A DNA stretch of 64,000 nt, taken from assembly GCF_013167455.1 (NCBI RefSeq), contig NZ_CP038328.1. One strand, 5' to 3'. The notes beneath the pieces are model-generated. The model made no database searches, had not been told where the DNA came from, and saw only the letters and a program-made list of their open reading frames with translations. Below are positions 14,956-15,144 of this stretch, in pieces. Within the stretch, counting starts at the first letter, position 1; each line of letters starts with the position of its first letter. This DNA is from Escherichia coli O157:H7. Its GTDB lineage: Bacteria > Pseudomonadota > Gammaproteobacteria > Enterobacterales > Enterobacteriaceae. Position numbers and translations under genes: made by a program.

Positions 14956-14988
14956 GCTGCCCTCATTCACTTTCGTTAAAGTTCATAA

Positions 14989-15006
14989 ATGTTCGTTATC
15001 GAACAT
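14989..15006. promoter_or_regulatory. GlpR operator in the glpD / glpEGR divergent control region
   Basis: Perfect palindrome ATGTTCG-TTAT-CGAACAT, matching the glp operator consensus (WATGTTCGWT-AWCGAACATW); further half-site-like motifs (AACAT) at 15031-15072. Confidence 0.7.
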
Positions 15007-15144
15007 ATTAGCAAAGAATCGCGCTTTAGGTAACATTGAAAAAACATTTTAGAGTGATATGTATAACATTATGGCGTTTATCTGCCGCTTCGACGTAAAC
15101 TGTGCGGTAAATTTGCCCACTTGTTTGTAAAGAAAGAGAGACGC

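Follow-up and report, generated by a model that had tools for sequence, protein, structure and literature searches.

Putative GlpR, ArcA and CRP sites in the divergent glpD–glpEGR control region of Escherichia coli O157:H7

The 189-bp spacer between the divergent genes glpD and glpE of Escherichia coli O157:H7 is very probably a composite control region at which three regulators, GlpR, ArcA and CRP, have separate sites. In substance this finding is already known: the element is the same as the glpD control region of E. coli K-12, and it carries little weight as a discovery; the glpD operator, its partner operator, and control by CRP and ArcA were worked out between 1988 and 2013. What has been gained is a correction, in that repeats sharing five bases with the GlpR operator had been attributed to the wrong regulator. 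The ArcA and CRP elements can be told apart from GlpR half-sites by their orientation, their spacing (11 versus 20 bp), the missing CG core and conservation across species.

The glpD–glpE spacer and its GlpR operators

The window, by which we mean the whole 64,000-nucleotide stretch of DNA that was analysed, is from E. coli O157:H7. An 801-bp query spanning positions 14700–15500 is 100% identical to O157:H7 chromosomes and was found in 5,424 of 5,426 complete E. coli genomes. A first-pass annotation of this DNA had placed a glpD/glpEGR divergent control region here, and the RefSeq gene limits bear this out: the span it gave, positions 14956–15144, is exactly the glpD/glpE spacer, with the reverse complement of the glpD ATG (14953–14955) at one edge and the glpE ATG (15145) at the other (Table 1). 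Over 241 bp the K-12 MG1655 sequence differs from the window by a single base at position 14982, in the left half of the operator OD2 described below, which is A in O157:H7 (TATGAACTTT) and G in K-12 (TATGAGCTTT) and in most Enterobacteriaceae. The glpR gene is intact in the window, whereas RefSeq gives it as a pseudogene in K-12 MG1655. Elsewhere at the locus, the glgP–glpD interval (10098–13235) of O157:H7 holds two genes for PstS-family substrate-binding proteins and a hypothetical gene, and the same interval of K-12 holds the small yzgL gene only. At 17103–18701, rtcR is an intact ORF of 532 aa in the window; in the O157:H7 record PV15-279, which matches the 801-bp query at 100%, rtcR is annotated as frameshifted.

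Table 1. Genes and candidate regulatory elements in and around the glpD–glpE spacer (window coordinates; relative positions refer to the inferred glpD transcription start)
Feature	Position	Strand	Relative position	Basis and remarks
glpD CDS (aerobic glycerol-3-phosphate dehydrogenase)	13450–14955	−		ORF; RefSeq annotation of identical O157:H7 record and of K-12
GlpR-like site inside glpD	14532–14551		mRNA ~+447 to +466	Matrix rank 10
GlpR-like 20-mer inside glpD	14573–14592		~+406 to +425	8.0 bits; synonymous-variation dip at codons 121–127, z = −2.5
OD2, weak tandem GlpR operator (glpD sense TATGAACTTTAACGAAAGTG)	14968–14987	−	~+11 to +30	Register, conservation
OD1, strong GlpR operator (glpD sense TATGTTCGATAACGAACATT), holds dyad	14988–15007	−	~−10 to +10	Consensus, matrix, conservation
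glpD transcription start, inferred within ~1 nt	14997	−	+1	Position of −10 hexamer
glpD extended −10 element, TGcTAATAT	15005–15013	−		Conservation, 77 species
ArcA box, two direct repeats 11 bp apart (ATGTTTTTTCAATGTTAC), overlaps −35, includes taacattgaaaaaacatt	15030–15047	−		Box of Park 2013
Predicted CRP site, core AGTGA-TATGTA-TAACA (glpD sense TGTTA-N6-TCACT), includes tataacattatgg	15053–15068	.		Core match, conservation
Conserved blocks on glpE side, probable glpE promoter region	15093–15114	+		Conservation 0.94 and 0.78 versus flanks 0.55–0.67
glpE CDS, opens glpEGR	15145–15471	+		ORF; RefSeq
glpG	15516–16346	+		RefSeq annotation of identical record
GlpR-like site AATGCGCGAAAACGAAAATA, last codons and stop of glpG	16326–16345			Ends 17 nt before glpR ATG (16363)
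glpR, intact DeoR-family repressor gene	16363–17121	+		RefSeq annotations

A dyad in the spacer, ATGTTCGTTATCGAACAT, had been described as perfect and as a GlpR operator. The string lies where it was reported, at 14989–15006, and its 7-bp arms (ATGTTCG and CGAACAT) pair perfectly, as does the inner TA, but the centre TTAT is asymmetric, with T14996 opposite T14999, and self-complementarity amounts to 16 of 18 positions (8 of 9 pairs). As a bare palindrome the dyad is unremarkable: eight 18-mers in the window have 8 or more of the 9 dyad pairs, as against about seven in shuffled sequences, a count that would suit a palindrome arisen by chance, or one bound by another regulator, with no relation to GlpR. 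It is the sequence content of the dyad that makes it non-random. A repeat search at the thresholds set reported neither the dyad nor the AACAT repeats discussed below and returned only two weak long inverted pairs, which we considered to be chance.

The 20-bp GlpR consensus is said, after the 1994 work of Zhao et al., to consist of two inverted WATGTTCGWT half-sites. Against this consensus the 20-mer at 14988–15007, in which the dyad lies, is the only match with no mismatch in the 64 kb, and the runner-up 20-mer has four mismatches. A weight-matrix scan with the GlpR consensus had been proposed as a check on the operator. To reduce circularity, the matrix that we used was trained on other glp operons only, with seven sites taken in K-12 from the glpF upstream region and the glpT–glpA interval as the best matches to the consensus. 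It ranked 14988–15007 first among 63,981 positions, a rank to be read with the training sites in mind, as these were picked by consensus match and leave the matrix partly dependent on the consensus. Two of the seven training sites are RegulonDB GlpR sites (PMC7804116, Supplementary Table 1).

Orthologous regions were collected from 80 species-level genomes, all of them Enterobacteriaceae and from genera including Escherichia, Salmonella, Citrobacter, Klebsiella, Enterobacter, Kosakonia, Kluyvera and Mangrovibacter. From these, 77 distinct upstream regions were aligned, and sites were scored with the matrix over 75 loci, one per species, at a threshold of at least 9 bits. At this threshold the 14988–15007 site is present in 75 of the 75 Enterobacteriaceae loci, with a median score of 22.1. 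Its E. coli form occurs in only 12 of the 77 species and the commonest form, TATGAGCGATATCGAACATT, in 26; the left arm is ATGAGCG in most Enterobacteriaceae. This variation indicates that the invariant part of the site is the right half-site together with the CG of the left, and that the near-perfect symmetry seen in E. coli is a feature of the lineage. A unique 20/20 match to the consensus, first place by a matrix from other glp operons, a position on the start of a glp regulon gene beside glpR, and retention in every species scored all speak against a chance palindrome or a site for another regulator, a reading to which we give practically no credence. The site is the already known main GlpR repressor site of glpD, as the first-pass annotation had proposed in calling it a GlpR operator, and we take 14988–15007 to correspond to OD1 of the Larson laboratory papers.

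Adjoining OD1 on the side of the glpD ATG, and in exact 20-bp register with it, is a second unit at 14968–14987. With six mismatches to the GlpR consensus and a weight-matrix rank of 207 among 63,981 positions it is weak when taken alone. Twelve of its 20 columns are at least 95% conserved among the 77 species, as are 12 of 20 in OD1, and mean majority identity over the 77 aligned upstream regions is 0.91 for this unit and 0.92 for OD1. The top consensus matches of the glpF upstream region (270/290) and of the glpT–glpA interval (384/424 and 476/516) likewise show a register of 20 or 40 bp. In name and in footprint this unit is presumably the OD2 of Ye and Larson (1988) and Yang and Larson (1996).

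Tandem operators had been suggested for this region, in keeping with cooperative repression of glp operons. A tandem array does exist, namely OD1–OD2, but the partner that had been named for the dyad was the wrong one, as OD2 lies on the other side of OD1 and is not among the AACAT repeats. The appeal to cooperative tandem action of glp operons was right, each known GlpR operon holding four to eight GlpR sites (PMC7567609). The same source cites Larson papers on glpD “tandem operator variants” and on “action at a distance”.

The position of both operators relative to transcription follows from the glpD −10 element. Within the extended −10 element the TGC is invariant among the 77 species and the TAWTAT nearly so, most genera having TGcTATTAT. 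A start at 14997, as deduced from the −10 hexamer, gives a 42-nt leader and the relative positions of OD1 and OD2 listed in Table 1; OD1 covers the last three bases of the −10 element and the deduced start. The Larson papers reportedly have the operators covering the −10 element and 30 bp past the start, with protection beginning near −10, and the span of −10 to +30 obtained here agrees with this. A scan of 14900–15200 for consensus sigma-70 promoters returned none at threshold; we attribute the blank at glpD to its poor −35 and do not read it as absence of a promoter. The conserved TGn together with the −10 hexamer is consistent with an extended −10 promoter that is assisted by CRP.

The glpD start site is absent from the supplements of Kim et al. 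(2012). Table S7 of Park et al. (2013) gives an ArcA site at −72/−30 from a mapped glpD start (PMC3798270). Counted from 14997 the ArcA site is at −50/−8, and the figure of Park et al. implies a start 22 nt further downstream, which would lie 20 nt before the ATG and has no conserved −10 in front of it.

On the glpE side, the conserved blocks contain two −10-like hexamers, TAAACT at 15096–15101 in ACGTAAACT and TAAATT at 15108–15113 in GGTAAATTT. The centre of the predicted CRP site, 15060.5, would then lie at about −47.5 or about −60 relative to glpE, depending on the hexamer. In three of the sampled loci (L036, L059 and L075, from Enterobacter, Leclercia and Lelliottia) the glpE start and the common promoter region are separated by an insertion (CCTCTCCCCGTGGGAGAGGG..GGGTGAGGGC) that is GC-rich and hairpin-like and looks like a REP-type element; E. 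coli lacks it.

Known GlpR sites may be very degenerate, with nine or more changes in 22 bp (PMC7567609), so that sequence alone is insufficient to argue against a weak GlpR contact upstream of OD1. The candidate for such a contact is the 20-mer directly upstream of OD1, at 15008–15027 (about −30 to −11; glpD sense AAAGCGCGATTCTTTGCTAA), which as a third weak unit would add to the OD1–OD2 arrangement by extending the repressor over the promoter spacer and all of the −10 element. The 20-bp register of OD1 and OD2 continues exactly into this 20-mer, and it scores 6.06 bits, which is among the two best in 15008–15090 (6.29 bits being 80th of 63,981 positions); its left half, AAAGCGCGAT, is similar to those of the two sites described below, at the glpG 3′ end and inside glpD; and AGCGCG, within the promoter spacer, shows a conservation of about 90% between genera that a spacer would not require. 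The right half of this 20-mer, however, is simply the −10 element, most species give it a low score (median 1.8 bits, with none reaching 9), and the conserved GCGCG could serve another purpose. The published footprint reportedly starts near −10. We regard a third unit as unlikely and keep to OD1 and OD2 as the GlpR operators of the spacer.

Probable ArcA and CRP elements among the AACAT repeats

The first-pass annotation had read the AACAT-containing repeats at 15031–15072 as further GlpR half-sites, naming taacattgaaaaaacatt and tataacattatgg, which sit at 15031 and 15062. AACAT pentamers occur at 15002 (within the dyad), 15032, 15043 and 15065, a density of four in 189 bp compared with 0.8 per kb window-wide. 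They are all in the same orientation, and the last three are spaced by 11 and 22 bp. Read in the glpD sense the repeats of 15031–15072 are AATGTTTTTT, AATGTTACCT and AATGTTATAC, none of which has a CG core or an inverted partner. Their ATGTT motifs start at −39, −50 and −72 from the deduced transcription start, whereas a 20-bp register would need −29, −49 and −69.

If these repeats were GlpR half-sites or operators, the array would extend towards glpE. Each of them does share AATGTT with the outer part of the GlpR half-site, and AATGTTTTTT has only two mismatches to the 10-bp half-site. Every 20-mer in 15008–15095 has at least eight mismatches to the GlpR consensus, and the two that have exactly eight, at 15018 and 15051, are somewhat more than expected for 69 positions; arrays of four to eight GlpR sites are known besides (PMC7567609). 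Against this stand the missing CG core, the single orientation, and the spacing of 11 and 22 bp in place of 20, with none of the repeats in the register of OD1 and with scores of −8.0 and −17.5 bits for the in-register units over the stretch. The 20-mer at 15051–15070, with its eight mismatches, was rejected as a GlpR unit, as its position is out of register and coincides with the CRP site.

Two of the repeats are already explained by ArcA ChIP-seq data. An ArcA box has been defined as direct repeats 11 bp apart centre to centre (PMC3798270), and the AACAT pentamers at 15032 and 15043 are the two repeats of such a box. The identical 18-mer is listed as the glpD ArcA box with 15.9 bits by Park et al. 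(2013; PMC3798270, Tables S1/S3/S4), who score the two repeats at 4.8 and 10.3 bits; they predict a further repeat, also of 4.8 bits, 22 bp downstream of the second. In K-12, both replicates of the ArcA ChIP-seq gave a peak at glpD/glpE, with modest enrichment of 3.7 and 5.8 (PMC3798270). The centres of these peaks map to window positions 15059 and 15035, and the K-12 sequence is identical here. In the box, TGTTT-N6-TGTTA is one mismatch away from TGTTA-N6-TGTTA, a pattern with eight matches of at most one mismatch in the window on both strands. The TGTT...TGTTACC of the box is kept in all genera; since the first repeat is TTGTT in most of them, the core that is kept is TGTT, in agreement with ArcA and in contrast to the ATGTT of a GlpR half-site.

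As for function, sigma-70 occupancy at glpD is reduced without oxygen (PMC3798270), and the same source lists glpD as a gene for which repression by ArcA had been described before (Iuchi et al., 1990). In the growth conditions of Park et al. the arcA mutant showed no significant change in glpD expression (Table S7, PMC3798270).

The remaining repeat, the AACAT at 15065, is part of the TGTTA half of a predicted CRP site. The core of this site has two mismatches to TGTGA-N6-TCACA, and there are 19 such matches in the 64 kb. Among the 77 species its half-sites are 98–100% conserved and its 6-bp spacer 68%; conserved halves with a free spacer are the usual signature of CRP. The repeat is followed by a conserved A(T/C) and not by the CG of a GlpR half-site, and it pairs with TCACT across the variable spacer. 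The centre of the predicted site is about 62–64 bp upstream of the deduced glpD start. A single CRP site serving both glpEGR and glpD is counted among 11 such divergent cases by Shimada et al. (2011; PMC3105977); glpD and glpE are among the targets that were not recovered by SELEX in that study, and the article cites a model by El-Robh and Busby for a CRP site common to divergent promoters.

Taken together, these observations make it very improbable that the repeats at 15031–15072 extend the GlpR array, and that part of the earlier interpretation has to be given up: the extra AACAT “half-sites” are the ArcA repeats and one CRP half-site.

[quoted passage not shown] The same pentamer could also serve ArcA as a fourth repeat in phase, one that is absent from the table of Park et al., in which case ArcA and CRP would compete.

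GlpR-like sites in glpG and glpD

The second-best GlpR match in the 64 kb lies outside the spacer, at the 3′ end of glpG (16326–16345), with four mismatches to the consensus and a matrix rank of 2. In 68 of the 75 Enterobacteriaceae species the orthologous site reaches the 9-bit threshold, and its median of 17.8 is near that of OD1; the background at this threshold is 0.00028 matches per position. In other genera the site reads AATG(C/T)GCGAAAACGAACATAA, and it is far better conserved than the neighbouring third codon positions of glpG. We know of no description of a GlpR-like site at this position. It could give GlpR autoregulation by roadblock.

Inside glpD, the site at 14532–14551 reaches the 9-bit threshold in 55 of 75 species and coincides with the deepest drop in synonymous variation within the gene (codons 137–143, z = −3.3); a second 20-mer, at 14573–14592, is accompanied by a shallower dip (Table 1). 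Internal operators of glpD were reportedly placed at +568 to +609 by Yang and Larson in 1996. The sequence at +568 to +609 was considered as the internal operators and rejected, as it has 10 mismatches by hand alignment and is under no synonymous constraint (z = −0.24). The two internal sites found here may instead be the published internal operators OD3/OD4 (Yang and Larson, 1996).

GlpR control reaching beyond the promoter operators, by way of the glpG 3′ site and the internal glpD site, is possible but on present evidence somewhat doubtful. The two sites could act as loop anchors for OD1/OD2, from which they are about 0.46 kb (glpD) and 1.34 kb (glpG) away, and sites at the glpG/glpR junction and inside glpD would complete the picture of GlpR action at a distance. 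Our search of the open literature gave nothing usable on the operator sequence, on internal operators or IHF, on GlpR ChIP-exo, or on GlpR autoregulation, and a Pseudomonas glycerol review and the Reg-Seq supplements contained no glpD operator coordinates.

Probable composite control and its known counterparts

GlpR binding, its cooperativity and induction by glycerol-3-phosphate are established knowledge. With the GlpR match, register, position and conservation observed here, and with the binding events taken from the literature, GlpR on the adjacent operators OD1 (strong) and OD2 (weak) would cover the end of the −10 element, the start and some 30 bp of leader. Bound cooperatively to both operators, GlpR would block RNA polymerase, and glycerol-3-phosphate would release it. 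CRP bound at 15053–15068, between the divergent promoters, could serve both of them, and would assist the glpD promoter with its poor −35. Phosphorylated ArcA on the TGTT(T/A) repeats at 15030–15047 would lie over the −35 and would explain why glpD is repressed anaerobically.

Each component has a counterpart in a described system. The closest is the OD1–OD2 pair of K-12 glpD (Ye and Larson, 1988; Yang and Larson, 1996), which is the same locus and, but for one base, the same sequence, with the same reported placement over the −10 element, the start and the leader. The glpD ArcA box resembles the ArcA-P sites of Park et al. (2013), being 18 bp long with two repeats 11 bp apart and overlapping the promoter as at most repressed promoters, and the glpD/glpE arrangement of CRP resembles the CRP sites common to divergent promoters of Shimada et al. 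(2011; PMC3105977). The operators of glpFK and glpTQ/glpACB (Weissenborn, 1992; Larson, 1992; Zhao, 1994) share the 20-bp consensus and the spacing by multiples of 20 bp. They are placed upstream of the start, however, where they overlap CRP sites or are interspersed with them (PMC4117983), whereas the glpD array lies on and downstream of the start, with its CRP site separate.
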